A program made the position numbers and the translations under genes. A stretch of 64,000 nt of DNA from an uncultured Bacilli bacterium (GTDB taxonomy: Bacteria; Bacillota_I; Bacilli_A; RF39; UBA660): the NCBI GenBank assembly GCA_947625625.1, contig CANQPC010000003.1:1278-65277 (forward strand). The letters run 5' to 3'. Below are positions 1-34,822 of the stretch, piece by piece. The notes beneath the pieces are model-generated. The model was not told the DNA's origin, did no database searches, and was given only the letters and a program-made list of their open reading frames with translations. Positions within the stretch are counted from its first letter, which is position 1, and each line of letters begins with the position of its first letter.

Positions 1-881
1 GGGAATTTAGAAAATGTTTTGAAATTGATAGTCAGGGACAATTTGCCGAGAGAGTTTTAATTACGGAGTATATTAATAAATTTATCGATAATGATACGAA
101 GTGGAACGAGGAATATGTGCCAACTTTCTTTACAATTGACGATTTGGAAGTGGCTCTTAACTTTACTCTTATTTCGGAAGGATTACTTTTAAATGAGAAA
201 TCGTATAGTGAAGCGACGGCGCTAAAGGTTAAGTTGCACGCTATTGCTAATAGTTCGCAGAGAAAATTCTTTGAGTGTGAAAACTTTGTTTCGATTAATG
301 AATATATTTCGGGACTAATTTTAATTGGTAATAATAAGAGAGCACAAATTATTAATTTTGTTCTCGAAAATATCGACGATCGTTTTGCGAAGTCTCTAGT
401 TAAGGTTTATTCGAGAATTTTATTTAATTTTATGAAGAGTTTACCATCAAGAGGAAGTATGCCTATTCATTTGATGCTCGAAGAAGCTCACAGGTATGTA
501 CAAAAAGACAATGATATAAATATTCTTGGGTATAATATATTCGAAAGAATTGCGAAAGAAGGTCGTAAGTTTGGAGTTATCCTCGATTTGATTACGCAAA
601 GACCGACTGAATTATCGGAAACGGTTATATCTCAGTGTAGTAATTTTTTAATATTTAAAATTAATCATCCTAGCGATTTGGAATATATTGAAAAGATGGT
701 TCCTAATATTAGTAGTGATGTTATCGAGAAGCAAAAGTCACTTCAGGCGGGAACATGTGTAGCATTTGGAAGAATGATGAAAATTCCAATGATAGTGAAA
801 ATGGATTTACCTGATCCTCCTCCACATAGTTCAAATGCTAATATATTTGACAAGTGGATGATAAAGTGGAAAAATGATTAG
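1..881 (+). CDS. HerA/DUF87-family P-loop ATPase, C-terminal part (5' end outside window)
   Basis: The frame is open from the window edge, with no stop before the GTG at 117. Motifs LMLEEAHRY, AKEGRKFGV..ITQRP and SQCSNFLIFKINHPSD match HerA/FtsK-like DUF87 ATPases. Confidence 0.6.
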   Translation, partial: EFRKCFEIDSQGQFAERVLITEYINKFIDNDTKWNEEYVPTFFTIDDLEVALNFTLISEGLLLNEKSYSEATALKVKLHAIANSSQRKFFECENFVSINEYISGLILIGNNKRAQIINFVLENIDDRFAKSLVKVYSRILFNFMKSLPSRGSMPIHLMLEEAHRYVQKDNDINILGYNIFERIAKEGRKFGVILDLITQRPTELSETVISQCSNFLIFKINHPSDLEYIEKMVPNISSDVIEKQKSLQAGTCVAFGRMMKIPMIVKMDLPDPPPHSSNANIFDKWMIKWKND

Positions 882-913: not shown

Positions 914-1046
914 TTATCAACATTATCAACAGACCTGTGGAAAAGTAAATTTACACAGGTTGATAACTTTATTTGACAAAATTTGTTGATAAGTACTCTA
1001 TTTATATATTTTATATGATATCATATTGTGGAAAAGCTGTTGATAT
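914..1046. promoter_or_regulatory. oriC DnaA-box cluster upstream of dnaA
   Basis: TTATCAACA at 914 and 923 (head-to-tail). TGTGGAAAA at 936 and 1027. TGTTGATAA at 984. GGTTGATAA at 958. TGTTGATAT at 1038. Each is within 1-2 mismatches of TTATCCACA or its complement. Confidence 0.8.
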
Positions 1047-3825: not shown

Positions 3826-3928
3826 AAAAAAAATTTTTATTATTTGTCGACATTATTAGACTTTTTTCGACAAAGGAATGTGCTTTAATATAGGGCACAT
3901 ATTTTTATATGTGGAAAGGGGGATATTA

Positions 3929-4390
3929 ATGGATACTTATATAATAAATGATGATGTTCTATGTTTTACGCTCGATGATGATAATCCGAAAAATATTTTG
4001 GTTATTGAGAAGAAAAGAAGGGTATCAGTTCATATGACTTGTCTTAAATTTTTGAGAAGATGTTGTAAAATATATGGTCATTCTTATGATATTCAAAGAC
4101 AATTTGTTATTGATAATTTTAATTATTATATTAAGACACCAATTATTGTATCAGAATATGATAATTTGATATTTTTTCCAACAACTTCTCCTAACTCGAA
4201 GAATTGTATTTGGATAGCTTATAGTAATGTCGATAGGTATGTTAAAGAAAATGATTACACAAAGATATATTTTAAAGGTGGAAAAATACTTAATATTAGT
4301 GCATCTTTTACTACTATTGACAGTCAAATTACGAAGTGTATTAAGATAGAAAAATTTATTAATAATATAAAATTAAGAGGAAATTTTTAA
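3929..4390 (+). CDS. ComK-family protein
   Basis: CLKFLRRCCKIYGHSYDIQRQ, KTPIIVSEYDNLIFFPTTSPNSKNCIWI and TKIYFKGGKILNIS align with the conserved ComK blocks (SCRFFGSSYAGRK, KPPIMV..IFLFPT..C.WI). The start at 3929 is preferred because GGAAAGGGGG lies just upstream; the track start at 3878 has no RBS. Confidence 0.65.
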   Translation: MDTYIINDDVLCFTLDDDNPKNILVIEKKRRVSVHMTCLKFLRRCCKIYGHSYDIQRQFVIDNFNYYIKTPIIVSEYDNLIFFPTTSPNSKNCIWIAYSNVDRYVKENDYTKIYFKGGKILNISASFTTIDSQITKCIKIEKFINNIKLRGNF

Positions 4391-4542: not shown

Positions 4543-5688
4543 ATGAAAATAAAAAAAATTAAACTATTAAATTATCGAAATTATGATAATTTAGAAATTG
4601 AATTTAATGATAACTTAAATATAGTAATTGGGAATAACGCTCAGGGAAAGACAAATTTATTAGAAGCTATTTATGTACTTGCTGTTACAAAGTCTTTTTT
4701 ATCAATTAATGATAAAAATTTAATCAAGTTTAATAGTAAATTTTCGATGATAAAAGGGTTATTATCGGGAAGTAATTTTGATGATGAACTCTCAATATTG
4801 TTAAACGATAATGGTAAGACAGTAAAAATAAACGATAAAGAAATTAAAAAATTAAGTGATTATATATCAAAAATGAACGTCGTTATATTTAGTGCCGAAG
4901 CTGTTCGAATGATTAAAGAAAGCCCGTCTTCAAGAAGAAGATATCTCAATATTCAAATAAGTCAGATAAACAGAAAATATCTTAAATGTCTAAGTGATTA
5001 TAATATAGTATTAAGACAAAGAAATGAATTTCTTAAGATAATAAATTTAGATAAAAAGAGTGACTGTGAATATTTAGAAATATTAAATGATAAATATACT
5101 GATTTATCTATCGAGGTATACAATTATCGAAAAGATTATATTAATGAAATAAATAGTTATATAGAAGATATCTTTTATAAGATTACGGGATTATCTAATA
5201 TTAGAATAGCTTATATATCTAATGTATGCTGTGATAATAATAGTAATAATTTAAAAGAAGAATTACTTAAAAAATTAGATAAAAATTTACATAAGGAATT
5301 ATTATATAAGATGACTTTTATCGGACCTAATCGTGATGATTTTTATTTTATGTTAGATGATAAAAATTTATCATTATATGGTTCACAAGGACAAATACGT
5401 AGTGCGATACTGTCTTTGAAACTTTCAGAAGTTATTTTATTTAGTAATAAAACTGATGAAAGTCCAATACTACTTCTAGATGATATATTTAGTGAGTTAG
5501 ATATAAATAAAAGAAATAGTATTTTAGGGTATTTAGATAATAAAAAAGTTCAGACGATAATTACGACGACAGATATCGAAAATATTAAAGAAGATATGCG
5601 AAAAAATGCTAATGTTTATGAGATAGAAAATGGAAAAATTATTTCTCGGGAAATAGTTTCGAGCAGGAAGGGTGATAAAAATGAATAA
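4543..5688 (+). CDS. recF: DNA replication/repair protein RecF
   Basis: N-terminal Walker [14 protein letters not shown], signature GSQGQ and Walker [12 protein letters not shown]. Confidence 0.95.
5637..5658. promoter_or_regulatory. Degenerate NBS-like palindrome in the recF 3' tail
   Basis: AATTATTTCTCGGGAAATAGTT has 2 mismatches to the 22-bp palindrome of the gyrA-tadA array. It encodes IISREI and lies 23 bp upstream of the gyrB ATG. Confidence 0.5.
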
Positions 5689-7620: not shown

Positions 7621-10191
7621 ATGGATGAAAATATTAATGATAACTTAGATGAAAATTTAGTTGTTGATAATTCTGAAAATTCTTCGGAAGAAAATACTGT
7701 AGATGAAGAAGAATTTAATGGTAATGATGATTTTAATGGTAATTTTCATGAACGCGATAGTTTATCGGAAAATAATATTGTCGACGAGGTTAGAAAATCT
7801 TTCTTGGAATATTCAGTAAGTGTTATTAAATCGAGAGCTTTACCTGATTTGCGAGACGGATTAAAACCCGTTCACCGAAGAATATTATGGTCGATGTACG
7901 AGAGTGGTTATACTCCTGATAAACCGCATCGAAAGTCCGCTAAAACAGTCGGAGAAGTTATGGGTAATTATCATCCTCATGGTGATTCTAGTATTTATGA
8001 GGCAATGGTAAGATTAGCTCAAGATTTTAACCAAAGGTATATGTTAATCGACGGACATGGTAATTTTGGTAATATTGAAGGTGATGGAGCGGCCGCTATG
8101 AGGTATACGGAGTCAAGGCTTTCGAAATTGTCACTCGAGTTACTTAGAGATATTAACAAAGATACTGTCGATATGGAAGATAACTTTGATGCAACGAGAA
8201 AAGAACCTAGTGTTTTACCTAGTAGATTTCCGAATATTTTGGTTAATGGTTCAATGGGAATTGCTGTCGGTATGGCGACGAATATTCCTCCACATAATTT
8301 GGGAGAGGTAATTGATGGTTGTGTTGCTTATATTGATAATCCTGATATTGATACTTTGGGATTGATGCAGCACATTAAGGGACCTGATTTTCCGACCGGT
8401 GGTATTATTTTAGGAAATTCTGGTATTAAAAAGGCTTATGAAACCGGACGCGGAACTATTACGATTAGAAGTAGAGCGGAAATTGAGGATTTGGGAACGC
8501 ATAGCAATATTATTATTACGGAAGTTCCTTATGGTGTTAATACGATGGAACTTAAAAATAAGGTTGCTGAACTCGTTCATAACAAGATAATTGATGGTAT
8601 TTCTGACTATCATACGGACTTGAAGAATGGTATTAAGATTACGATTACTTTAAAGAGAGATGCTAATCCGCAAGTGGTTTTAAATAATTTATATAAGCAT
8701 ACTAATTTTCAAGTATCTTATGGTATTATCTTTTTAATGCTAGATGGTCTTACTCCTAAAACGCTTCCTCTTAAAGATATTATTTCGAAGTATATCGATC
8801 ATCAAAAGGTTGTTATTATTAGGAGAACGAGATTTGATCTTAATAAGGCAGAAAAGAGAGTTCATATTTTAGAAGGTTATAAGATTGCTCTCGATAATAT
8901 TGATGAGGTTATTCAGATTATTAAAACGGCTGAAAGTGATGTCGAAGCTAAAGAGAAATTGATTTCGCGATTTGGTCTTACTGAAGTTCAAACGGATGCT
9001 ATTTTGGAATTGAAATTACGTCGTTTGACTGGATTAGAGAGAGACAAAATTGAGAATGAGCTTGCTGAACTTCTTAAGTTAATTGAAGAATTAAAGGCTA
9101 TTTTAGGTGATGAGAAGAAAGTTCTCGAAATTATTAAAAATGAGCTTTTGGAAATTAAAGATAAATATGCTGATGAGAGAAGAACTTCAATTGACATGAC
9201 CGCTATTGACTTTATCGAAGATGAATCTCTTATTCCTGTGGAAAATATTATTATTACTTTGACTAATAAAGGTTATATTAAGAGAATTGCTTCAGATACT
9301 TATAGAAGTCAAAATCGTGGTGGTATGGGAATTAAAGGAATGTCAACGAACGAAGAGGATTTTGTTGAACATTTGATTAATTCGACAACACATGATTATA
9401 TTCTTATGTTTACTAATCGTGGTAAGGTATATCGTATTAAAGGGTATGAAATTCCTGAATTTAGTAGGCAATCGAAAGGTCTTCCTATTGTTAACTTATT
9501 GAGTTTAGATAGGAATGAAAAGATTACAGCTCTTCTTAATATTTCTTCAGATGATGAATGTAAATATTTGGTATTTGCTACTAAGCTTGGTCTTATTAAG
9601 CGTACGAATATTTCGGAGTTTGATAGTATTAGAAATAATGGTAAAAAGTTTATTACTCTTAAAGATGATGATGAACTTGTTTCGGTTAAGAAGACTAATG
9701 GTAATAATGAAATTTTAATGGCATCATCAAACGGTCGTATGGTTAGATTTAATGAAGAAGCTATTAGAGTTATGGGAAGAAGTGCTTCTGGTGTTAGAGG
9801 TATTAATTTAGGGCCATCTGGTAGTTTGGTTGGTATGGAAGTTGCTAGCCCAGATCAGTTTGTTCTTGTTGTTACGGAAAAGGGTTATGGTAAAAAGACT
9901 CCTACTGATGAGTATAGAATAACTAATCGTGGTGGAAAAGGTGTTAAGACGGTTAATATTACTGATAAGAATGGCGCTATTATTTCATTTAAGACTGTTG
10001 ATAATTCAAAAGACTTGATGATTATTACAGATGCTGGTATTGTTATTAGAATGGATGTTGATAAAATTTCAACGATGAGTAGAGTTACACAAGGAGTTAA
10101 ACTTATTAATTTGAAAGATGATAGTGTTGTAAGTTCTATTGCTGTTGTCGATAAAGAAAATAGTGAAGAGGAATCTGCTTTAGATGAGTAG
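7621..10191 (+). CDS. gyrA: DNA gyrase subunit A, with a ~40-aa acidic N-terminal extension
   Basis: RALPDLRDGLKPVHRRIL, the active-site AAMRYTE region and a C-terminal beta-pinwheel. RBS AGGTGGTGA lies 7 nt upstream of the ATG. Confidence 0.96.
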   Translation: MDENINDNLDENLVVDNSENSSEENTVDEEEFNGNDDFNGNFHERDSLSENNIVDEVRKSFLEYSVSVIKSRALPDLRDGLKPVHRRILWSMYESGYTPDKPHRKSAKTVGEVMGNYHPHGDSSIYEAMVRLAQDFNQRYMLIDGHGNFGNIEGDGAAAMRYTESRLSKLSLELLRDINKDTVDMEDNFDATRKEPSVLPSRFPNILVNGSMGIAVGMATNIPPHNLGEVIDGCVAYIDNPDIDTLGLMQHIKGPDFPTGGIILGNSGIKKAYETGRGTITIRSRAEIEDLGTHSNIIITEVPYGVNTMELKNKVAELVHNKIIDGISDYHTDLKNGIKITITLKRDANPQVVLNNLYKHTNFQVSYGIIFLMLDGLTPKTLPLKDIISKYIDHQKVVIIRRTRFDLNKAEKRVHILEGYKIALDNIDEVIQIIKTAESDVEAKEKLISRFGLTEVQTDAILELKLRRLTGLERDKIENELAELLKLIEELKAILGDEKKVLEIIKNELLEIKDKYADERRTSIDMTAIDFIEDESLIPVENIIITLTNKGYIKRIASDTYRSQNRGGMGIKGMSTNEEDFVEHLINSTTHDYILMFTNRGKVYRIKGYEIPEFSRQSKGLPIVNLLSLDRNEKITALLNISSDDECKYLVFATKLGLIKRTNISEFDSIRNNGKKFITLKDDDELVSVKKTNGNNEILMASSNGRMVRFNEEAIRVMGRSASGVRGINLGPSGSLVGMEVASPDQFVLVVTEKGYGKKTPTDEYRITNRGGKGVKTVNITDKNGAIISFKTVDNSKDLMIITDAGIVIRMDVDKISTMSRVTQGVKLINLKDDSVVSSIAVVDKENSEEESALDE

Positions 10192-10208: not shown

Positions 10209-10234
10209 AAAATTATTTCCCGGGAAATAATTTT
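10209..10234. promoter_or_regulatory. NBS-type palindrome 1 (putative Noc/ParB-family binding site)
   Basis: Perfect 26-bp palindrome AAAATTATTTCCCGGGAAATAATTTT, 18 bp after the gyrA stop. It contains the 16-mer TATTTCCCGGGAAATA. Confidence 0.75.
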
Positions 10235-10304
10235 CGTACATTTGTTTGTTTAAATTATAATTATAATTATTTTTAGTGTTGACCTGTTGATAGATTATTT
10301 TTTG

Positions 10305-10371
<67 letters not shown>

Positions 10372-10460
10372 TTTAATATTTTGATATGTATTTTTAATAG
10401 TACTGACTTTATTTTTAATATATGGTTTATTTGGGAAATAAATTTTATCTTATTTTAGTA

Positions 10461-10482
10461 AATTATTTCCCGGGAAATAATT
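10461..10482. promoter_or_regulatory. NBS-type palindrome 2
   Basis: Perfect AATTATTTCCCGGGAAATAATT. Confidence 0.75.
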
Positions 10483-10588
10483 TATATCTTAAAATATGTT
10501 TTTGAGGTATTTATTTAGAATAAGGCTATTCATAAATGGTATTTTAAATTAGATATAGTGGCAGTGTGTTTTTGCATTTGCGAATGAG

Positions 10589-10608
10589 ATTATTTCCCGG
10601 GAAATAAT
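10589..10608. promoter_or_regulatory. NBS-type palindrome 3
   Basis: Perfect ATTATTTCCCGGGAAATAAT. Confidence 0.75.
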
Positions 10609-10800
10609 TTGTACCTTAAAATATGTTTTTGAGTGTATTTTTTTATTACCCTGTTGATAAATTATTTTAATAATTATTATCGTGAATATATTTTAATTTT
10701 TTTCCTTTAAAGATGATAGGTATGTATTTTTTAATATTCTTAAGTTTATTTTAGAAAATATGCGATTTGTTTGGGAAATAAATTTTATGTATTTAGAGTA

Positions 10801-10822
10801 AATTATTTCCCGGGAAATAATT
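10801..10822. promoter_or_regulatory. NBS-type palindrome 4
   Basis: Perfect AATTATTTCCCGGGAAATAATT. Confidence 0.75.
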
Positions 10823-10926
10823 TATACCTCAAAATATATTTTTGACGGTATTTTTTGAATATTGCTACTTATAAATATTATTTTAAATTAAATATTTTGG
10901 TAGAGTATTTTTGTATTTGCGAATGG

Positions 10927-10948
10927 AATTATTTCCCGGGAAATAATT
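10927..10948. promoter_or_regulatory. NBS-type palindrome 5
   Basis: Perfect AATTATTTCCCGGGAAATAATT. Confidence 0.75.
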
Positions 10949-11139
10949 TGTACCTTAAAATATGTTTTTGAGTGTATTTTTTTATTACCCTGTTGATAAA
11001 TTATTTTAATAATTATTATCATGAATATATTTTAATATTTTTTCCTTTAAAGAGATGATATGTATTTTTAAATATTACTAACTTTATTTTAGAAAATGTG
11101 CGATTTGTTTGGGAAATAAATTTTATGTTATTTAAAGTA

Positions 11140-11161
11140 AATTATTTCCTGGGAAATAATT
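11140..11161. promoter_or_regulatory. NBS-type palindrome 6 (one C>T change)
   Basis: AATTATTTCCTGGGAAATAATT. Confidence 0.6.
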
Positions 11162-11195
11162 TACATACATTTGTTCGTTTTTAATATTTTACTTA

Positions 11196-11211
11196 TGTTT
11201 CACGTGGAACA
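11196..11211. promoter_or_regulatory. parS site 1
   Basis: TGTTTCACGTGGAACA fits TGTTNCACGTGAAACA-type parS. It sits inside the longer palindrome ACTTATGTTTCACGTGGAACATAAGT. Confidence 0.8.
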
Positions 11212-11321
11212 TAAGTATTTCATTTATAAAATGAATATTTAATAATTATTAATGACCTTACGATATTGTATTAATAGAAAAAATATTATTTAAATATAGT
11301 TTTTAAATAAATATTATTTGA

Positions 11322-11337
11322 TGTTTCACGTGAAACG
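11322..11337. promoter_or_regulatory. parS site 2 (one mismatch)
   Basis: TGTTTCACGTGAAACG. Confidence 0.65.
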
Positions 11338-11379
11338 TGATTAATTGATTTTAAATATTTATTTTTTTAGCATCATACA

Positions 11380-11461
11380 TTTAATAAAATATTATTTAAT
11401 GGAACAAGTCAGAAGTAGAAGCTAGCGTTTTAGCATTTTATTAATGTGTGTATCTTTTTTT
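11380..11461 (+). ncRNA. Diverged SRP-RNA-like paralogue (possible pseudogene or novel small RNA)
   Basis: Aligns with the SRP RNA at 11631-11710. It keeps the 3' arm, the T-run terminator and a TTGATT-17-TAGCAT promoter-like spacing. The apical part reads UCAGA-AGU-AGAA-GCU-AGCGU instead of UCAGG-GGC-GGAA-GCC-AGCAG. Ends are approximate. Confidence 0.4.
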
Positions 11462-11462
11462 A

Positions 11463-11478
11463 TGTTCCACGTGGAACA
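11463..11478. promoter_or_regulatory. parS site 3
   Basis: TGTTCCACGTGGAACA, a perfect palindrome directly after the T-run of the SRP-like RNA copy 1. Confidence 0.8.
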
Positions 11479-11556
11479 GTGATATCGTTTAATTATTAAT
11501 ATTAAGTATAGTATTGGTTTTATTATTATATAGATTTTATGATTTTACTTGTTACA

Positions 11557-11572
11557 TGTTTCACGTGGAACA
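11557..11572. promoter_or_regulatory. parS site 4
   Basis: TGTTTCACGTGGAACA within CATGTTTCACGTGGAACATG. Confidence 0.8.
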
Positions 11573-11594
11573 TGATAGATTACTATTTTAAAAC

Positions 11595-11623
11595 TTGCTT
11601 TTTTTTATTCTTTTTAGTATTAT
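11595..11623 (+). promoter_or_regulatory. Sigma-A-type promoter for SRP RNA
   Basis: TTGCTT, 17 bp spacer, TATTAT. The predicted start is near 11630. Confidence 0.5.
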
Positions 11624-11630
11624 GTATTTG

Positions 11631-11710
11631 ATACAACATTAATTGATGGAACCAAGTCAGGGGCGGAAGCCAGCAGCTTTAACATTTTATTAATGTGTGT
11701 ATCTTTTTTT
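11631..11710 (+). ncRNA. ffs: Small (about 80 nt) signal recognition particle RNA
   Basis: Domain IV signature: helix AAG/CUU, symmetric-loop halves UCAGG and AGCAG, helix GGC/GCC capped by a GGAA tetraloop. Closing helix ACAUUAAU/AUUAAUGU, then a T7 run. No Alu-domain sequence is visible upstream. Ends are approximate. Confidence 0.75.
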
Positions 11711-11711
11711 A

Positions 11712-11727
11712 TGTTCCACGTGAAACA
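11712..11727. promoter_or_regulatory. parS site 5
   Basis: TGTTCCACGTGAAACA, directly after the SRP RNA T-run. Confidence 0.85.
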
Positions 11728-11816
11728 TTGATAATGTTTAATTGTTAAAATTATTTTAATATTAAATCCAATATTGATTTTATTATTATATAAATTTTAT
11801 GATTTTACTTGTTACA

Positions 11817-11832
11817 TGTTTCACGTGAAACA
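11817..11832. promoter_or_regulatory. parS site 6
   Basis: TGTTTCACGTGAAACA within the perfect 20-bp palindrome CATGTTTCACGTGAAACATG. Confidence 0.85.
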
Positions 11833-11860
11833 TGTATGATTATTTTTTTGTTTAATGGTA

Positions 11861-11876
11861 AGTTTCACGTGGAACA
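11861..11876. promoter_or_regulatory. parS site 7 (one mismatch)
   Basis: AGTTTCACGTGGAACA. Confidence 0.65.
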
Positions 11877-11921
11877 TAATATTTTGTTGCTTTTTTGTTG
11901 ATATGTATGTTAATATTTCTA

Positions 11922-11937
11922 TGTTTCACGTGAAACA
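11922..11937. promoter_or_regulatory. parS site 8
   Basis: TGTTTCACGTGAAACA, 18 bp upstream of the tadA start codon. Confidence 0.85.
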
Positions 11938-11955
11938 TTTGTGTGGTGATTTTTA

Positions 11956-12381
11956 ATGAATGATAAATATATGGATTTGGCTATTTTAGAGGCTAAGAAA
12001 GCTGAAAGAATAAATGAAATTCCTGTTGGCTGCATTATAGTAATGAATGATAATGTTATTGCTAGTGGTTATAATTGCAAGGAAAGTGAAAAAAATAGTA
12101 TTAGACATGCGGAAATTAATGCTATTGATGAAGCTTGTCGAAAACTTAATACTTGGAGATTGGATGATTGTGTTATGTATGTTACTTTAGAGCCTTGTAT
12201 GATGTGTATGGGAGCAATTGTGGAAAGTCGGATTAAAGTTGTTTATTATGGTACTAAAAATAATGTCGAACAAATGTATGATAATAGTAAAATTTGTAAA
12301 CGGGTAAACCTTATAAATACTGATAATTATGAATGCTCGAAGATACTTACTGATTTTTTTAGAAAAAGAAGAAAAAAGTGA
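11956..12381 (+). CDS. tadA: tRNA-specific adenosine deaminase
   Basis: CDA-fold zinc motifs HAEINAI and LEPCMMCMGAI. 141 aa, upstream of dnaX as in Bacillus. Confidence 0.9.
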   Translation: MNDKYMDLAILEAKKAERINEIPVGCIIVMNDNVIASGYNCKESEKNSIRHAEINAIDEACRKLNTWRLDDCVMYVTLEPCMMCMGAIVESRIKVVYYGTKNNVEQMYDNSKICKRVNLINTDNYECSKILTDFFRKRRKK

Positions 12382-12430: not shown

Positions 12431-14113
12431 ATGGCATATTTGGCTTTGTATCGAAAATATAGACCTTTTAGTTTTGATGATGTATATGGGCAAGAAGAGG
12501 TTGTGACTGTTATTAAAAATGCTATTGCTAATAATAAGATTTCACATGCTTATTTGTTTTGCGGACCTAGGGGTACTGGAAAGACGACTATTGCTAAAAT
12601 TATTGCTAGGCTTATTAATTGTGAAAATTTAATTGATGGTAATCCTTGTGGTAAGTGTTACAATTGTATTAATTTTAATAATAGCAATGATATTGTGGAA
12701 ATTGATGCTGCTTCAAATAATGGTGTTGATGAAATTAGAGAACTTAGGGATAAGGTTAATTTGGTACCTAGTAATGCTAAATATAAGGTTTATATTATTG
12801 ATGAAGTTCATATGTTGACTACACAAGCTTTTAATGCTTTGTTAAAAACTTTGGAAGAACCTCCAAGTCATGTTATTTTTATTTTGGCAACTACAGAGCC
12901 ACATAAAATACCATTAACAATTGCTTCGAGATGTCAGAAATTTCGTTTTTCAAAGATTGATGATGATAAGATTGTTGATAGAATAAAAGAAATTGCTAAA
13001 TGTGAAAATATTTCGGTTCAAGATGATGCTTTTTATGAAATTGCACGTGTTGCTGATGGTGGTATGAGGGATGCTATTAATATTTTGGATCAACTTACTG
13101 CTTATTCTAATGGTAATATTACTCTTGAAGATGTTAATAAAGTGGTAGGTTCAGTTTCTTATGATGATTTATCTTCTCTTATTAAGAATATTGCTTTTAA
13201 TGATAAAAATGGTATTATTCGTTTTGTTGATTATTTAGATAAATCAGGAAAAGAAATTGGCAAATTTATTCCTGAGTTAGTTATTTTTTTGAAAGATGTT
13301 ATTCTATATAAAAATACTGGTGATTTAAGTAATATTATGACTAAAAATGCCTCGATTAAAGTTGTAAGTGACCTTTTTGATGATGATAAATTGTATAAAT
13401 TTGTTGAAGTTTTAAATGATATTTTGAGTGTTATTAAAGTTTCATCACATGGTTCAATTGTTTTTATGACTTATATGCTTAGATTTTCTGATGAGTTTTT
13501 TTCTAATGAAAAAATGGTCGGTGAAGGCGACAAAATTATTTCCCGGGAAATAATCGGAGATGAAAGTGTAAAAAAAAGTAGTAAAATTAACAATAATGAT
13601 TCTAGTGATGATGAAATTATTTCCCGGGAAATAATTTTGGGAAATAATTTTATTGATGATGAGGCTGTTGATATTAGAATTAATAATGCTTTTGCTTCGG
13701 CTTCTAAGGAAATTAAAAATACTTTAATAGATAATTGGAAAAAACTTGATGATTATATATATGATGAAAGTTATTCTTTGATTTCTGGTCTTTTAAAAGA
13801 TGCTTCTGTTATGGTAGCCTCGTCTTCAAATGTTATTATAGCAAGTGAATCACAATCAGTTGTAAGTAGAATTAATGAAAATATTGATAATATTGAAAAT
13901 ATGCTTGATAAAGTTTTTAACTTGAAAGTTAAGGCTATTGCTATAAGTAATAATAGATGGCTCGAGGAAAAGGAAAAATACATTAAGAATGTTAAAAATG
14001 GTGTTAAGTATGTAATTAAAGAGGAAAAAAGAATAGAAAAGCAGGTTGAAGATAAAACTCCTGTTGATAAACTTATTGAACTTGTAGGAGATAATATGAT
14101 AGAATATAAATAA
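12431..14113 (+). CDS. dnaX: DNA polymerase III subunit tau/gamma
   Basis: GPRGTGKTT Walker A, a zinc module (CGKCYNC), IIDEVHML and SRCQKF. The variable C-terminal half contains two in-frame NBS palindromes. Confidence 0.95.
   Translation: MAYLALYRKYRPFSFDDVYGQEEVVTVIKNAIANNKISHAYLFCGPRGTGKTTIAKIIARLINCENLIDGNPCGKCYNCINFNNSNDIVEIDAASNNGVDEIRELRDKVNLVPSNAKYKVYIIDEVHMLTTQAFNALLKTLEEPPSHVIFILATTEPHKIPLTIASRCQKFRFSKIDDDKIVDRIKEIAKCENISVQDDAFYEIARVADGGMRDAINILDQLTAYSNGNITLEDVNKVVGSVSYDDLSSLIKNIAFNDKNGIIRFVDYLDKSGKEIGKFIPELVIFLKDVILYKNTGDLSNIMTKNASIKVVSDLFDDDKLYKFVEVLNDILSVIKVSSHGSIVFMTYMLRFSDEFFSNEKMVGEGDKIISREIIGDESVKKSSKINNNDSSDDEIISREIILGNNFIDDEAVDIRINNAFASASKEIKNTLIDNWKKLDDYIYDESYSLISGLLKDASVMVASSSNVIIASESQSVVSRINENIDNIENMLDKVFNLKVKAIAISNNRWLEEKEKYIKNVKNGVKYVIKEEKRIEKQVEDKTPVDKLIELVGDNMIEYK
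13534..13554. promoter_or_regulatory. NBS-type palindrome inside dnaX (copy A)
   Basis: AATTATTTCCCGGGAAATAAT contains the exact 16-mer and is translated as KIISREII. Confidence 0.7.
13615..13636. promoter_or_regulatory. NBS-type palindrome inside dnaX (copy B)
   Basis: Perfect AATTATTTCCCGGGAAATAATT, translated as EIISREII. An extra half-site GGGAAATAATTTT follows. Confidence 0.7.
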
Positions 14114-22532: not shown

Positions 22533-23063
22533 TTGAAAACAACTGGTGTTATTAGAAGAATTGATGAACTTGGAAGAGTAGTTATTCCTAAAGAAATAAG
22601 AAAAAATTTACGTATTAAGAACGGTGAGAGTTTAGAAATATTTGTCGAAGGAGAAAATATTATTTTAAAGAAATTCTCACAGATAGAAAGTTTGGAGAAT
22701 GTATCGGTTGATTATGTCGAAGCTTTTAATCAAATTATTAAACATAATATAATAGTAACAGATAGAGATAAGGTTATTGCTGTAGCGGGACCTCTTAAGA
22801 AAAAGTATATGGGAAAGATGATAAATGATTTTACGGAAAGGTCTATCGAACGAAGAGATTCTTTTTCAGAAAAGCAAAAGAAAATATTTAAGGTAATTGA
22901 TGATGAGGAAGAAAATGGTTATTATTCTTTTGCATCGATTGTCAATAATGGAGATGCTATTGGAAGTGTAATATTAATATCGACTGATACGCCAATTACT
23001 GATGTTGAAGATAAGATGATTGTTATTTTATCGCATTTGTTAAGTCAAAAATTTATCGATTAA
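22533..23063 (+). CDS. spoVT: Stage V sporulation protein T (AbrB/SpoVT family regulator)
   Basis: SpoVT-AbrB N-terminus TGVIRRIDELGRVVIPKEIRKNL plus a GAF-like C-terminus. TTG start. Lies after mfd as in Bacillus. Confidence 0.85.
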   Translation: MKTTGVIRRIDELGRVVIPKEIRKNLRIKNGESLEIFVEGENIILKKFSQIESLENVSVDYVEAFNQIIKHNIIVTDRDKVIAVAGPLKKKYMGKMINDFTERSIERRDSFSEKQKKIFKVIDDEEENGYYSFASIVNNGDAIGSVILISTDTPITDVEDKMIVILSHLLSQKFID

Positions 23064-24782: not shown

Positions 24783-24789
24783 TTGATAT

Positions 24790-25001
24790 GTAAAGCGATG
24801 AAGGAAAGAGTAATAGGAATAGTTTAGAGAGAGTCTATGTTGGTGGAAAATAGATAATGAAAACTATTATAAATGGTTCTGGAGCAGTTATATCTAATAG
24901 GTATAAACGGTTGTTACGTTATAACTTATATGAGTGTATTGTATGTAAAGTAAGGTGGTACCGCGGATAATTTGTTCGTCCTTTAGGTGTCACTTTTTTT
25001 T
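24790..25001 (+). promoter_or_regulatory. T-box riboswitch leader, probable Met (AUG) specifier
   Basis: Stem I elements GATGAAGG/AGAGTA, distal AGAGAG and GGTGGAA. Candidate specifier ATG followed by A at 24857-24860. T-box core AAGGTGGTACCGCGG at 24951-24965. T8 run at 24993-25000. The terminator helix is not clearly resolved. Confidence 0.8.
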
Positions 25002-29011: not shown

Positions 29012-29938
29012 ATGAAGAGAATGTTATTTATTACTTTGATAATTATTTTTATTCCTTTTTTTATCGTAAGTATCTTTAATGTCGATAAAAAAAGTGAAAT
29101 AAAATTGAACTATATGTCGAATACTATAATTAGAGTAAAGAGACTAGATAGTAATGAAATAGTCTATTTACCTTTTGAGGAATATATTGTCGGCGTTTTA
29201 GCGGGAGAAATGCCGATATATTTTGAAAAAGAAGCTTTAAAAGCTCAAGCTGTGGCCGCTAGAAGTTATGCACTTAAAAGAATTGGCTATAATAGTGACA
29301 ATGATTATGATGTTGTCGATTCGGTTTTGAATCAAGTTTATTTAGATAATGATTACTTAAAGAAGGCTTGGGGAGATAATTATGTAAGTAATATTAACAA
29401 ACTTAGGGAAGTAGTCAATGAAACTAGTTTGGAATATTTGGACTATGATGGAGAAGTTATTGATGCTTTGTTTTTTTCGACTAGTAATGGTTATACGGAA
29501 ACGGCTTCATTGGTCTTTGATTTGGATTTGCCATATTTGAAGAGTGTTAAATCGGAATGGGATTCTAAAACTAGTTCGGTTTTTAGAGCTAGGGCGACAA
29601 TGAGTCTTAATAGTTTTTATGAAAAGATTGGTCTTCCGTATAATGAAAATTTAACTGTTAAAGTATTGGAAAGAAGTTCTACTAATAGAATAATGTCGAT
29701 ATCAATAAATGATATGGTCTTTTCTGGAAAAGATTTATACAATAAATTGGGATTAAAATCAACTGATTTTTCGTTAATTCAGGATGGAGATAGTGTTATT
29801 ATCGATACTGTTGGGTATGGGCATGGAGTAGGAATGAGTCAATATGGGGCTGAAGGTATGGCTGAAGAAGGATATAGTTATGTTGATATTCTTAAATATT
29901 ATTATAATGGTACTTCAATTAAAAAAATGGAAAATTAG
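29012..29938 (+). CDS. spoIID: Stage II sporulation protein D (lytic transglycosylase)
   Basis: AVAARSYA, FFSTSNGYTE and GHGVGMSQYGA motifs. Confidence 0.9.
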   Translation: MKRMLFITLIIIFIPFFIVSIFNVDKKSEIKLNYMSNTIIRVKRLDSNEIVYLPFEEYIVGVLAGEMPIYFEKEALKAQAVAARSYALKRIGYNSDNDYDVVDSVLNQVYLDNDYLKKAWGDNYVSNINKLREVVNETSLEYLDYDGEVIDALFFSTSNGYTETASLVFDLDLPYLKSVKSEWDSKTSSVFRARATMSLNSFYEKIGLPYNENLTVKVLERSSTNRIMSISINDMVFSGKDLYNKLGLKSTDFSLIQDGDSVIIDTVGYGHGVGMSQYGAEGMAEEGYSYVDILKYYYNGTSIKKMEN

Positions 29939-29985: not shown

Positions 29986-30627
29986 ATGAATAGTAGAAGA
30001 ATTAAACCATTTTTGATGCCCGCAATATACGGAGGTTTAGTATTAGTTTTTTTAGTTAGTATGTATTTTGCTAAAGATTTATTTAGTAATTATCTTTTTT
30101 CTAGTGATAATCCTATTGAATATGTCGATGGGGAAATTACAGAAGATAAAAATAATGAATTACCAGTTGTAAGTACTACTTTAAAAATAGTTAGACCATA
30201 TCTTGATAGCTCTGTTTCGATTTCAAAAACTTTTTATGATTATGAAGGAGAGGCTAGCGAACAAGAAAATTCGATAATTTTTTATGAAGATACTTATATT
30301 CAAAATTCAGGAGTAGATTATACTAGTAATGATAAATTTGATATTATAAGTATACTTGATGGAACAGTAATATCTGTTGAGGAAAATGATATACTTGGCA
30401 CTACGGTAGAAATTAGACATAGTAATGATTTGATTTCGGTATATCAAAGTTTATCAGAAGTAGCGGTAAAAAAAGATGATGAAGTTATTCAAGGACAGAT
30501 AATTGCTAAAAGTGGGCTTTCAAATATTAGTAAGTCTTTAGGTAATCATTTACATTTTGAACTTTATTATAAGGGAAAAATTGTAAATCCTGAGGAATAT
30601 TATAATAAATCATTAGATGAATTATAG
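29986..30627 (+). CDS. M23-family peptidase-domain protein (SpoIIQ-like position)
   Basis: N-terminal TM segment and a LytM domain (GNHLHFELYYKGKIVNP). Lies between spoIID and spoIIID. Confidence 0.75.
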   Translation: MNSRRIKPFLMPAIYGGLVLVFLVSMYFAKDLFSNYLFSSDNPIEYVDGEITEDKNNELPVVSTTLKIVRPYLDSSVSISKTFYDYEGEASEQENSIIFYEDTYIQNSGVDYTSNDKFDIISILDGTVISVEENDILGTTVEIRHSNDLISVYQSLSEVAVKKDDEVIQGQIIAKSGLSNISKSLGNHLHFELYYKGKIVNPEEYYNKSLDEL

Positions 30628-31005: not shown

Positions 31006-31998
31006 GTGTTTAATAAAGATATTGGAATAGACTTAGGAACTGCGAATGTACTTATATATATTAAGGGTCAAGGTATTGTGTTAAATGAACCATCTGTTGT
31101 GGCAATTGATGCTGAAACAAAAAAACCTTTAGCTGTTGGTACGGAGGCACATGAGATGCTTGGTCGCACTCCGGGAAAAGTTAAGGCTATTAAGCCAATG
31201 AAGGATGGAGTTATTGCTGACTTTGAAACTACTGAAGTTATGCTTAATTATTTTATAAAAAAAGTAAATGGAAGAAGTTTTTTATCTAGACCAAGAATAT
31301 TAATTTGTTGTCCTTCAAATATTACTCAGGTTGAAAAGAATGCTATTAAGGAAGCTGCCGAAAGGACGGGGGCAAAAAAGGTATTTTTAGAAGAGGAACC
31401 TAAAGTTGCTTCAATTGGGGCTGGTATGGATATTTCTAAACCTAGTGGTAATATGGTTATAGATATTGGCGGTGGTACTACAGATATTGCAATATTATCA
31501 CTTGGTGGTATTGTAAATAGTTCTTCGATTAGAATTGCAGGAAATGCTTTTGATAATGACATTGTAAAATATATTAAAGATAAATATAAATTGCTCGTTG
31601 GAGAAAGAACTGCTGAAGAAATTAAAATTTCTATTGGTACGGTTTTTCCAGGTTCAAGAAGTGAAAAGATGGAAGTTAGAGGAAGAGACTTAGTAACTGG
31701 ACTTCCACATACTATTACTTTTACTTCAGATGAAGTTGAAGAGGCATTACGAGAAAGTGTCTATACGATTATTCATGCTGTAAAGGGTATTTTGGAACAG
31801 ACTCCACCTGAATTGTCCGCTGATATTATCGATAAGGGAATTGTTCTTACTGGTGGTGGGGCAATGGTCGATGGTTTTGCACAGATTTTATCACAAGAAC
31901 TTAAAGTTCCAGTATTTATAGCGGAATCTCCTCTTACTTGTGTAGCTGAAGGCACTGGAGTTTTACTTGACAATTTATATATGCTTGAAAGACAATAG
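31006..31998 (+). CDS. mbl: MreB/Mbl-family actin-like rod-shape protein
   Basis: DLGTANVL, DIGGGTTD and VLTGGGA motifs. GTG start. The position after spoIIID matches Bacillus mbl; the paralogue assignment is tentative. Confidence 0.85.
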   Translation: MFNKDIGIDLGTANVLIYIKGQGIVLNEPSVVAIDAETKKPLAVGTEAHEMLGRTPGKVKAIKPMKDGVIADFETTEVMLNYFIKKVNGRSFLSRPRILICCPSNITQVEKNAIKEAAERTGAKKVFLEEEPKVASIGAGMDISKPSGNMVIDIGGGTTDIAILSLGGIVNSSSIRIAGNAFDNDIVKYIKDKYKLLVGERTAEEIKISIGTVFPGSRSEKMEVRGRDLVTGLPHTITFTSDEVEEALRESVYTIIHAVKGILEQTPPELSADIIDKGIVLTGGGAMVDGFAQILSQELKVPVFIAESPLTCVAEGTGVLLDNLYMLERQ

Positions 31999-34559: not shown

Positions 34560-34822
34560 TATATATAATAAAAATTATAACAGTTCTATTATCCGCAAAG
34601 GGACGAATAACTGTTATAATCCGCGGTACCACCCAATTTATTATATATAAAAGATATATAATCACTTAATTATAGATAACGGTTTAAATCCGACTTATCC
34701 TACTGTTAGTTCAGATAAGTAGCTCGTAGGTGTCTTTCTTTTTAACTTTTATATTATCTTTCACCAAATGATAACTCTCTATAATAAAAATTAAAAATAC
34801 TCTTCCTAGTCATTGCTGATGC
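34560..34822 (-). promoter_or_regulatory. T-box riboswitch leader upstream of aspS
   Basis: On the minus strand: GACTAGGAAGAGTA, AGAGAG and GGTGAAA, then T-box core TGGGTGGTACCGCGG (34621-34635). Terminator stem TTATAACAGTT/AACTGTTATAA plus a T5 run. The specifier is ambiguous within GATAATA (about 34752-34758). Confidence 0.85.

Follow-up and report, generated by a model that had tools for sequence, protein, structure and literature searches.

Why would a bacterial chromosome hold eight binding sites for the segregation protein ParB (Spo0J) within a single gap between two genes? The question is raised by a stretch of 64,000 nucleotides from an uncultured Bacilli bacterium (assembly GCA_947625625.1, contig CANQPC010000003.1, positions 1,278 to 65,277), which was analysed at full length and is referred to here as the window. 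The original prediction, made from the letters alone, described eight parS sites packed into 742 bp immediately upstream of tadA. We find that the array is present as described and is kept at the same locus throughout a large Bacilli clade. It is likely, in our view, to be a compact, maintained chromosomal centromere for ParB, wrapped around the gene for the small signal recognition particle (SRP) RNA, ffs, and joined to Noc-binding sites (NBS).

The parS array in the gyrA–tadA gap

Our pattern scan agrees with the prediction on both the number and the extent of the sites, with six exact copies and two carrying one mismatch between 11196 and 11937 (table 1). Exact matches to TGTTNCACGTGRAACA number 6 in the window, against 0.00 expected from 100 shuffles. 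No further parS with two or fewer mismatches occurs in the 64 kb, and relaxing the limit to three adds only two matches, which is the level of chance. The motif had been assigned to the Spo0J/ParB consensus, TGTTNCACGTGAAACA, and rightly so, as the exact 16-mer is the duplex used in ParB–parS crystallography (PMC7383237). The extended palindromes are also real: the one centred on parS-1 spans 11190–11217 with 12 pairs, and the one around parS-6 is perfect over its 24 nt. Spacing is irregular, at 44–155 bp, for a density of about one site per 93 bp. The distance of 18 nt from the last site to tadA holds for an ATG at 11956, the start favoured by 141-aa homologues, whereas the ENA calls put it at 11971. 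The predicted distance of about 10 kb from dnaA was borne out, and the array is equally 10 kb from a cluster of DnaA-box-like sequences (presumed oriC, table 1), so that the sites are origin-proximal; GC skew is positive throughout.

The window comes from a contig of a metagenome-assembled genome (MAG), and its closest genomes are likewise uncultured gut MAGs, so a repeat that was expanded or collapsed during assembly had to be considered. Two low-coverage contigs from the same species (L001 and L002) do break near or inside the repeats. However, two assemblies made independently from other samples, L003 (ERZ27249395) and L004 (ERZ27249389), contain all eight parS with identical spacing, L004 matching the window at 96.7% identity across 1237 nt, which excludes collapse or expansion for the parS part. 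The array of a close relative is also consistent between long-read and short-read assemblies. An artefact of this kind, against which the original prediction had itself warned, can be dismissed with near certainty. The number of NBS lying upstream of the array (six) is less secure, because the L003 and L004 contigs break inside the 339-bp repeat that carries them.

Two elements of the original description need amending. The DNA around the sites was called non-coding, but the array encloses the gene for the SRP RNA together with a decayed duplicate. The functional ffs is 84–92% identical to the ffs of relatives and is found by Rfam at the same locus in seven of them; the decayed copy (11372–11462) is missed by Rfam even with E ≤ 1. 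The array was also likened to a plasmid-style centromere. The window has no regular iterons: its spacing is irregular and it was built from a duplication, which Tandem Repeats Finder (TRF) resolves as a 260-bp unit present 1.9 times (11358–11849) and comprising the duplicated ffs with two parS. Regular head-to-tail repeats beside parAB on a plasmid, as in sopC, are not what is seen here, since the replicon is a chromosome and no parAB lies nearby. The same gap contains an (ATT)30 microsatellite at 10294–10380. It also contains, next to the parS, the group of NBS described below, which the original prediction had passed over and which alters the view of the locus.

Table 1. Coordinates of the sites, genes and repeats of the gyrA–tadA gap and its surroundings (positions in the window).
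Feature	Position	Strand	Details
parS-1	11196..11211	.	TGTTTCACGTGGAACA, exact; centre of 28-nt extended palindrome
parS-2	11322..11337	.	TGTTTCACGTGAAACG, 1 mismatch (terminal A>G)
parS-3	11463..11478	.	TGTTCCACGTGGAACA, exact; immediately 3' of decayed ffs copy
parS-4	11557..11572	.	TGTTTCACGTGGAACA, exact
parS-5	11712..11727	.	TGTTCCACGTGAAACA, exact; first base is the base next to the ffs T-run
parS-6	11817..11832	.	TGTTTCACGTGAAACA, exact; within 24-nt perfect palindrome 11813-11836
parS-7	11861..11876	.	AGTTTCACGTGGAACA, 1 mismatch (initial T>A)
parS-8	11922..11937	.	TGTTTCACGTGAAACA, exact; 18 nt 5' of tadA ATG
NBS-1	10214..10229	.	TATTTCCCGGGAAATA, exact; 23 nt past gyrA stop; position kept in most close relatives
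NBS-2	10464..10479	.	exact
NBS-3	10591..10606	.	exact
NBS-4	10804..10819	.	exact
NBS-5	10930..10945	.	exact
NBS-6	11143..11158	.	TATTTCCTGGGAAATA, 1 mismatch; 53 bp centre-to-centre to parS-1
NBS in dnaX	13537..13552	.	exact; encodes I-S-R-E-I, variable linker
second NBS in dnaX	13618..13633	.	exact; reading phase and peptide as at 13537
NBS-like site, recF/gyrB junction	5640..5655	.	1 mismatch
ffs (small SRP RNA)	11625..11711	+	Rfam RF00169, 54.9 bits (gathering score 40)
decayed ffs duplicate (pseudogene)	11372..11462	+	75-83% identity to relatives' ffs; core mutated
339-bp x2.3 tandem repeat	10382..11163	.	TRF, 88% matches; blastn self-match 508 nt, 85%
gyrA	7621..10191	+	Pfam; left edge of 1764-bp gap
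tadA	11956..12381	+	Pfam and homologues; right edge of 1764-bp gap
presumed oriC	914..1035	.	five DnaA-box-like 9-mers; upstream of dnaA (1157-2518)

Conservation and turnover of the array

With TadA as the query, 80 loci were obtained from 185,579 species genomes. In L005–L022, where TadA is 47–69% identical to that of the window, every locus has 3–9 parS in approximately 1 kb upstream of tadA, and the 109 parS present in 349,813 bp of clade sequence all fall inside the gyrA–tadA gap. The usual layout in these relatives is the gyrA stop codon, an NBS about 20 nt further on, ffs, the parS array and then tadA. A logo of 113 clade sites, 89 of them exact, agrees base for base with the B. subtilis consensus across 16–18 bp; variation is confined to position 5/12, which is known to be degenerate, and information content falls to background beyond the 18-bp palindrome. 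Between species, blastn aligns only ffs and stretches of 21–45 nt centred on the motifs, while within genomes it finds recent duplications. Sites at one locus are thus kept exact between spacers that can no longer be aligned. This conservation across the clade marks the array as functional DNA.

The array also turns over. The window species represents a derived state: from one NBS in the ancestor, six have arisen by amplification, and upstream of ffs there are four additional parS; the 339-bp unit holds two NBS, and its repetition produced the amplification. The gap of L086 has a 294-bp tandem unit of its own. The pattern fits purifying selection on each site combined with birth-and-death turnover of the array. 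Arrays grow and decay through tandem duplication, with the 16-mers, and not the spacers, preserved by selection.

Metagenomes were scanned for parS followed by an NBS core within 30–60 nt, which returned at least 120 stretches (L090–L209). Among the matches listed, 117 of 120 are the same gyrA–tadA–dnaX locus, from genomes of 21–33% GC; the 57 complete gyrA–dnaX intervals have a median of 4 parS (range 2–9) and 2 NBS (range 1–9), and no parS lies outside that interval in 489 kb. Many of these loci are regular composite repeats. L170 (L170:2090-3549) is a composite repeat of 9 parS and 9 NBS with a period of approximately 106 bp, L096 (L096:6012-6627) has 5 parS and 6 NBS with a period of approximately 123 bp, L136 has 7 parS with a 38-bp period, and L071, from the genome scan, has a 127-bp unit with one parS and one NBS. 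L026 (L026:1-600) has a 43-bp unit with one parS, repeated head to tail in at least 14 copies, and its contig begins inside the array. Such regularity is limited to some relatives, for example L026 (43 bp) and L136 (38 bp). In L093, L104, L134, L157, L170, L187 and L195, arrays of parS and NBS flank tadA on both sides, including the tadA–dnaX space, which means that in those relatives tadA is enclosed by the putative centromere.

This history of duplication invites the alternative that only one or two parS are functional and that the others have hitch-hiked by slippage or unequal recombination. Much about the locus is in keeping with it: the arrays were made by recent tandem duplications that copied a dead ffs along with the sites, the same gap harbours the microsatellite, copy number ranges from 3 to 9 among close relatives, and one parS suffices in model organisms. 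Neutral amplification does account for where the copies came from. It does not account for the exactness of the old ones, as 6 of 8 sites in the window and 89 of 113 in the clade match exactly between spacers diverged beyond alignment, which indicates that the older copies are individually maintained. Moreover, no genome among approximately 140 arrays has come down to a single site, and the helical phasing between parS and NBS described below, which neutral amplification also leaves unexplained, implies a constraint on spacer length. We consider this explanation unlikely as an account of the whole array.

A second alternative is that the sites form an operator, through which a ParB-family protein would control ffs, tadA–dnaX or both by roadblock or silencing, with segregation secondary. 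The positions of the sites give some reason to think so. In about half of the close relatives, 31–35 nt separate the last parS from the start codon of tadA; in L005, L011 and L018, as in the window, the next parS starts 1–3 nt beyond the ffs 3' end (as defined by Rfam); and a weak promoter-like sequence, TTGATA-16-TATGTT (11898-11925), overlaps parS-8. Promoter-like matches are, however, at chance in this AT-rich gap (25 against 19.4 ± 4.1 expected), and in the other relatives the last parS is 84–166 nt from tadA. In L026 the array is on the 5' side of ffs, and the -36 position relative to tadA is occupied by an NBS instead of a parS. Copy numbers of 3–14 are well beyond the needs of an operator, and arrays on both sides of tadA, as in the metagenomic loci above, are not expected of one. 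The array may control ffs or tadA as a side role, but such control seems improbable as its main function.

In the long-read assemblies of a close relative (L087:19016-20800 and L089), an insertion of approximately 1.8 kb separates the NBS from the parS array, and the short-read contigs L086 and L088, which encode an identical DnaA protein, are without it. The insertion has an open reading frame (ORF) of 444–453 aa, which was considered as a candidate binding protein and set aside, since it gave only weak, sub-threshold matches to helix-turn-helix (HTH) and rve-integrase families. It is probably an insertion sequence element, with the ORF as its predicted transposase.

Noc-binding sites and their spacing to parS

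The second motif of the locus, TATTTCCCGGGAAATA, is the 16-mer crystallised in complex with Noc (PMC7383237). Seven exact copies and two with one mismatch are present in the window, against 0.05 expected, and all nine lie at 5.6–13.6 kb, with none at 14–64 kb. The copy at the recF/gyrB junction has counterparts at an equivalent distance upstream in about ten relatives, exact but for one mismatch in L010 and L013.

The copies inside dnaX have the same reading phase in 10 genomes, and they encode (I/N)-I-S-R-E-I in a linker that is otherwise unconserved. Each requires the codons TCC and CGG, which occur nowhere else in dnaX and are rare in general (over 24 window genes, TCC accounts for 15 of 773 serine codons and CGG for 8 of 441 arginine codons). 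Phase, unconserved linker and rare codons together argue that selection acts here on the DNA itself. In genomes of Erysipelotrichia type, dnaX has a parS at the aligned position and in the same phase, encoding V-S-R-E-T (L210:2537, L040:9824). The site has thus switched in place between parS and NBS, with S-R-E kept and mostly synonymous changes.

The same outgroup genomes bear on whether these palindromes are ParB and Noc sites at all, or instead bind another factor, form hairpins (terminators or repetitive extragenic palindromic (REP)-like elements) or are restriction palindromes (CACGTG, CCCGGG). A terminator scan of the gap scored 2 of the 8 parS as terminator-like, with a hairpin and a T-rich tail, and neither a ParB nor a Noc gene was found in the window or in the metagenomic loci listed. 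On the other hand, conservation extends over the full 16–18 bp and leaves only position 5/12 free, and the sites occur at a single origin-proximal locus and are not dispersed, which together with the low terminator count is unlike intrinsic terminators or REP-like elements. Rare codons keep the NBS inside coding sequence, and sister genomes in which parB and noc are present show the same sites in the homologous places: the Erysipelotrichia-type genomes with noc-parA-parB carry a single parS 5' of tadA and another inside dnaX. We therefore regard a different identity for the palindromes as very unlikely.

Adjacent parS and NBS are separated by preferred distances, with centre-to-centre peaks near 26, 36, 47, 58, 68 and 78 bp. 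For the listed metagenome loci (L090–L209), dereplicated to 239 distinct spacer families, a step that removes shared ancestry only in part, the periodicity of 10.4 bp has a spectral power of 19.7, a value reached by 0 of 2000 jittered nulls, and its phase is 5.8 bp, or about half a turn. Distances below 45 bp, which fall outside the range of the search pattern (n = 66), show the same phase (11 of 5000 nulls), as do those of 45–75 bp (0 of 5000 nulls); the signal fades above 75 bp. Neighbouring parS are not phased with each other (114 families, power 0.7) and neither are neighbouring NBS (34 families, power 3.7), while like sites with one unlike site between them have a weak tendency towards integer turns. 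The window's own junction (11143 to 11196, 53 bp) is off the peaks, so phasing is a property of the wider clade and not of the window.

Phased pairing suggests that ParB and Noc can act as a physically coupled pair; since B. subtilis has identical motifs, its existing proteins would allow a direct test. One possible, if rather doubtful, extension is a composite, two-faced centromere, in which interdigitated parS and NBS half-integer turns apart would place Noc on a membrane-facing side and ParB on a side facing ParA and SMC. Were that the case, segregation handle, SMC loading site, membrane tether and division-inhibition beacon would be united in one element, the two CTP-clamp paralogues would stand in a direct stereospecific relation, and the dnaX switch from parS to NBS would be a DNA-side record of the split in specificity between ParB and Noc. 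Alternatively, one bispecific ParB-family protein may read both motifs.

Proposed mechanism, assumed cognate proteins and known systems

How a compact centromere might work can be sketched from the model in which ParB nucleates at parS, closes into a cytidine triphosphate (CTP)-dependent clamp and slides off (PMC7053999, PMC7333895). ParB dimers would bind each 16-bp palindrome, take CTP, close to clamps and slide into the flanks, with the eight sites in 742 bp serving as one high-flux loading point. With so many clamps, segregation driven by ParA and the loading of SMC could both proceed from practically one point on the chromosome, which would spare the SMC complexes the collisions caused by dispersed sites; clustering of strong parS has been argued to prevent Smc–Smc collisions (bioRxiv 10.1101/2020.12.04.411900). 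Noc loaded at the bracketing NBS (at the recF end, past gyrA and in dnaX) would coat the same origin-proximal region and tether it to the membrane. NBS serve as nucleation sites for Noc, which spreads and binds membrane in dependence on CTP (PMC8429893), its spreading covers 8–10 kb in S. aureus, where it also restrains initiation (PMC5540599), and Spo0J and Noc jointly oppose Z-ring assembly in B. subtilis (PMC6852036); given these properties, loading of both proteins at one place is plausible. The site preferences of ParB and Noc are reported to be conserved across orthologues.

Several points weigh against such a centromere. A single parS is usually enough for segregation in model species (PMC7333895), and the benefit of eight copies is something that we infer. 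The parS scan of this genome covers 64 kb, and sites may be present elsewhere. No gene for ParB, Noc, ParA or SMC was found in the window, within ±10 kb of the locus in relatives or in the 120 metagenomic loci listed, and the 10 kb upstream of dnaA, reached through DnaA homologues, has polA, fpg and a DUF87 ATPase gene and no ParB. A protein search with the Noc of L035 as query returned only Erysipelotrichia Noc, so that the cognate ParB and Noc of this lineage are assumed: we infer their existence and their binding to parS and NBS from the sites, and the effects proposed beyond binding are conditional in the same way.

A ParB is characterised by ParB_N with GERRxRA plus HTH_ParB, and a Noc by the specificity residues Q, K, K and R. 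A GERRxRA scan and a home-made ParB hidden Markov model, applied to all ORFs of the window and the loci, gave matches only in loci from Erysipelotrichaceae and Clostridia. The most AT-biased of the Noc matches, considered as possible members of the clade, turned out to come from genomes of Erysipelotrichia type and serve as the outgroup; in these, noc-parA-parB lies 8–9 kb downstream of tadA and Noc has the signature GKSQSxxANK...TERHAR.

The surroundings of the array are those of a Bacilli-type chromosomal origin. The window begins with a fragment of a DUF87-type ATPase gene, followed by the DnaA-box cluster, dnaA, dnaN, a comK-like gene, recF, gyrB, gyrA, the gap, tadA, dnaX, ebfC and recR, and the synteny of dnaA, dnaN and gyrBA with B. 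subtilis identifies the replicon as the chromosome. The gene upstream of dnaA encodes a DUF87/HerA-FtsK-like ATPase (window 1-881; L086:7979-9739) and is preceded by polA and fpg in relatives. It takes the place of the usual rpmH-rnpA...noc-soj-spo0J block, so neither side of the origin region has the canonical parB neighbourhood. The ComK-family gene (3878-4390) sits between dnaN and recF, as it does in the close relatives L086–L089, and a BofA-like gene follows recR in relatives. Genes for SpoVT (22533-23063), SpoIID (29012-29938), a SpoIIQ-like protein (29986-30627) and MreB (31006-31998) are found further downstream. Synteny and sporulation genes mark the host as Bacilli-type, and the presence of the latter in a genome of 28% GC, whose relatives are labelled ‘Tenericutes’, suggests an endospore-forming lineage; the closed or nearly closed sequences of relatives, a 1.46-Mb chromosome and a 1.68-Mb contig, suggest a small genome. 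Two T-box leaders (Rfam RF00230) were also detected, one upstream of dut/metG genes (24789-24986, + strand) and one upstream of an aspartyl-tRNA synthetase gene (34596-34822, − strand).

The components of this locus, namely parS, NBS, ParB, Noc and origin-proximal clusters of parS, are already known. In the literature that we searched, there was no account of a chromosomal parS density of this order, of such an array conserved across a large Bacilli clade, of an SRP RNA gene embedded in a parS array or of parS and NBS paired systematically and in helical phase. Among the closest systems is Spo0J–parS of B. subtilis, with which the window shares the 16-bp consensus, an origin-proximal location, a Bacilli host and the order of genes around the origin (dnaA-dnaN-recF-gyrB-gyrA ... 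tadA-dnaX-ebfC-recR-bofA). In B. subtilis, however, parS are single, mostly within genes and separated by tens of kb, the strongest four being 5, 13 and 39 kb apart (PMC5815017), whereas every parS seen here falls in a single intergenic gap, with a site about every 93 bp.

Grouping of parS near the origin as one centromere is known from Caulobacter crescentus, where the five strongest sites lie in 5 kb (PMC5815017), and Myxococcus xanthus has 24 parS upstream of parAB (PMC3778016). The array in the window exceeds the published chromosomal clusters (Caulobacter and B. subtilis; PMC5815017) in density by a wide margin; the original prediction had drawn a similar contrast with the dispersed sites of characterised Firmicutes. 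The Caulobacter and Myxococcus clusters are beside parAB, spread over kilobases and partly in genes; the present array is approximately 10-fold denser than that of Caulobacter, lies away from parAB, embeds ffs, is renewed through tandem duplication and is paired with NBS.

The sopC centromere of the F plasmid consists of 12 x 43-bp repeats. Both have many inverted repeats for ParB binding in less than 1 kb, and the relative L026 even has a 43-bp unit, in at least 14 copies, although the equal period is probably a coincidence. Unlike sopC, the window array is on a chromosome, uses the chromosomal parS motif, has no adjacent parAB and is spaced at 44–155 bp. In sporulating B. subtilis, origin-proximal ram sites bound by RacA anchor the origin. 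By analogy, which is one of function alone, the present locus may also be a palindromic, origin-proximal group through which a spore former tethers its origin to the membrane or the cell pole, but the motif and the protein family are different. For Noc, the 16-mer is that of B. subtilis and S. aureus (PMC7383237), the location is again origin-proximal (PMC5540599) and the host is a Firmicute, the group to which Noc is restricted. Known NBS are scattered, in S. aureus over 41 loci in the origin-proximal half, whereas up to nine are gathered here in 14 kb around parS and those of relatives are interspersed with parS, the distances being in helical phase.

A review of the field raises the questions of why parS occur near one another and what causes them to cluster (PMC7333895). 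A natural extreme is offered by this clade, with all parS seen in approximately 1 kb, renewed by tandem duplication and present in 2–14 copies, and with compact parS/NBS cassettes that could be of use to the DNA-labelling tools that already employ both systems (PMC11109969). Scattering of parS has been described as a peculiarity of a few lineages that include the Bacilli (bioRxiv 10.1101/2020.12.04.411900), and it is within this very group, cited as the exception, that the extreme of clustering is found.

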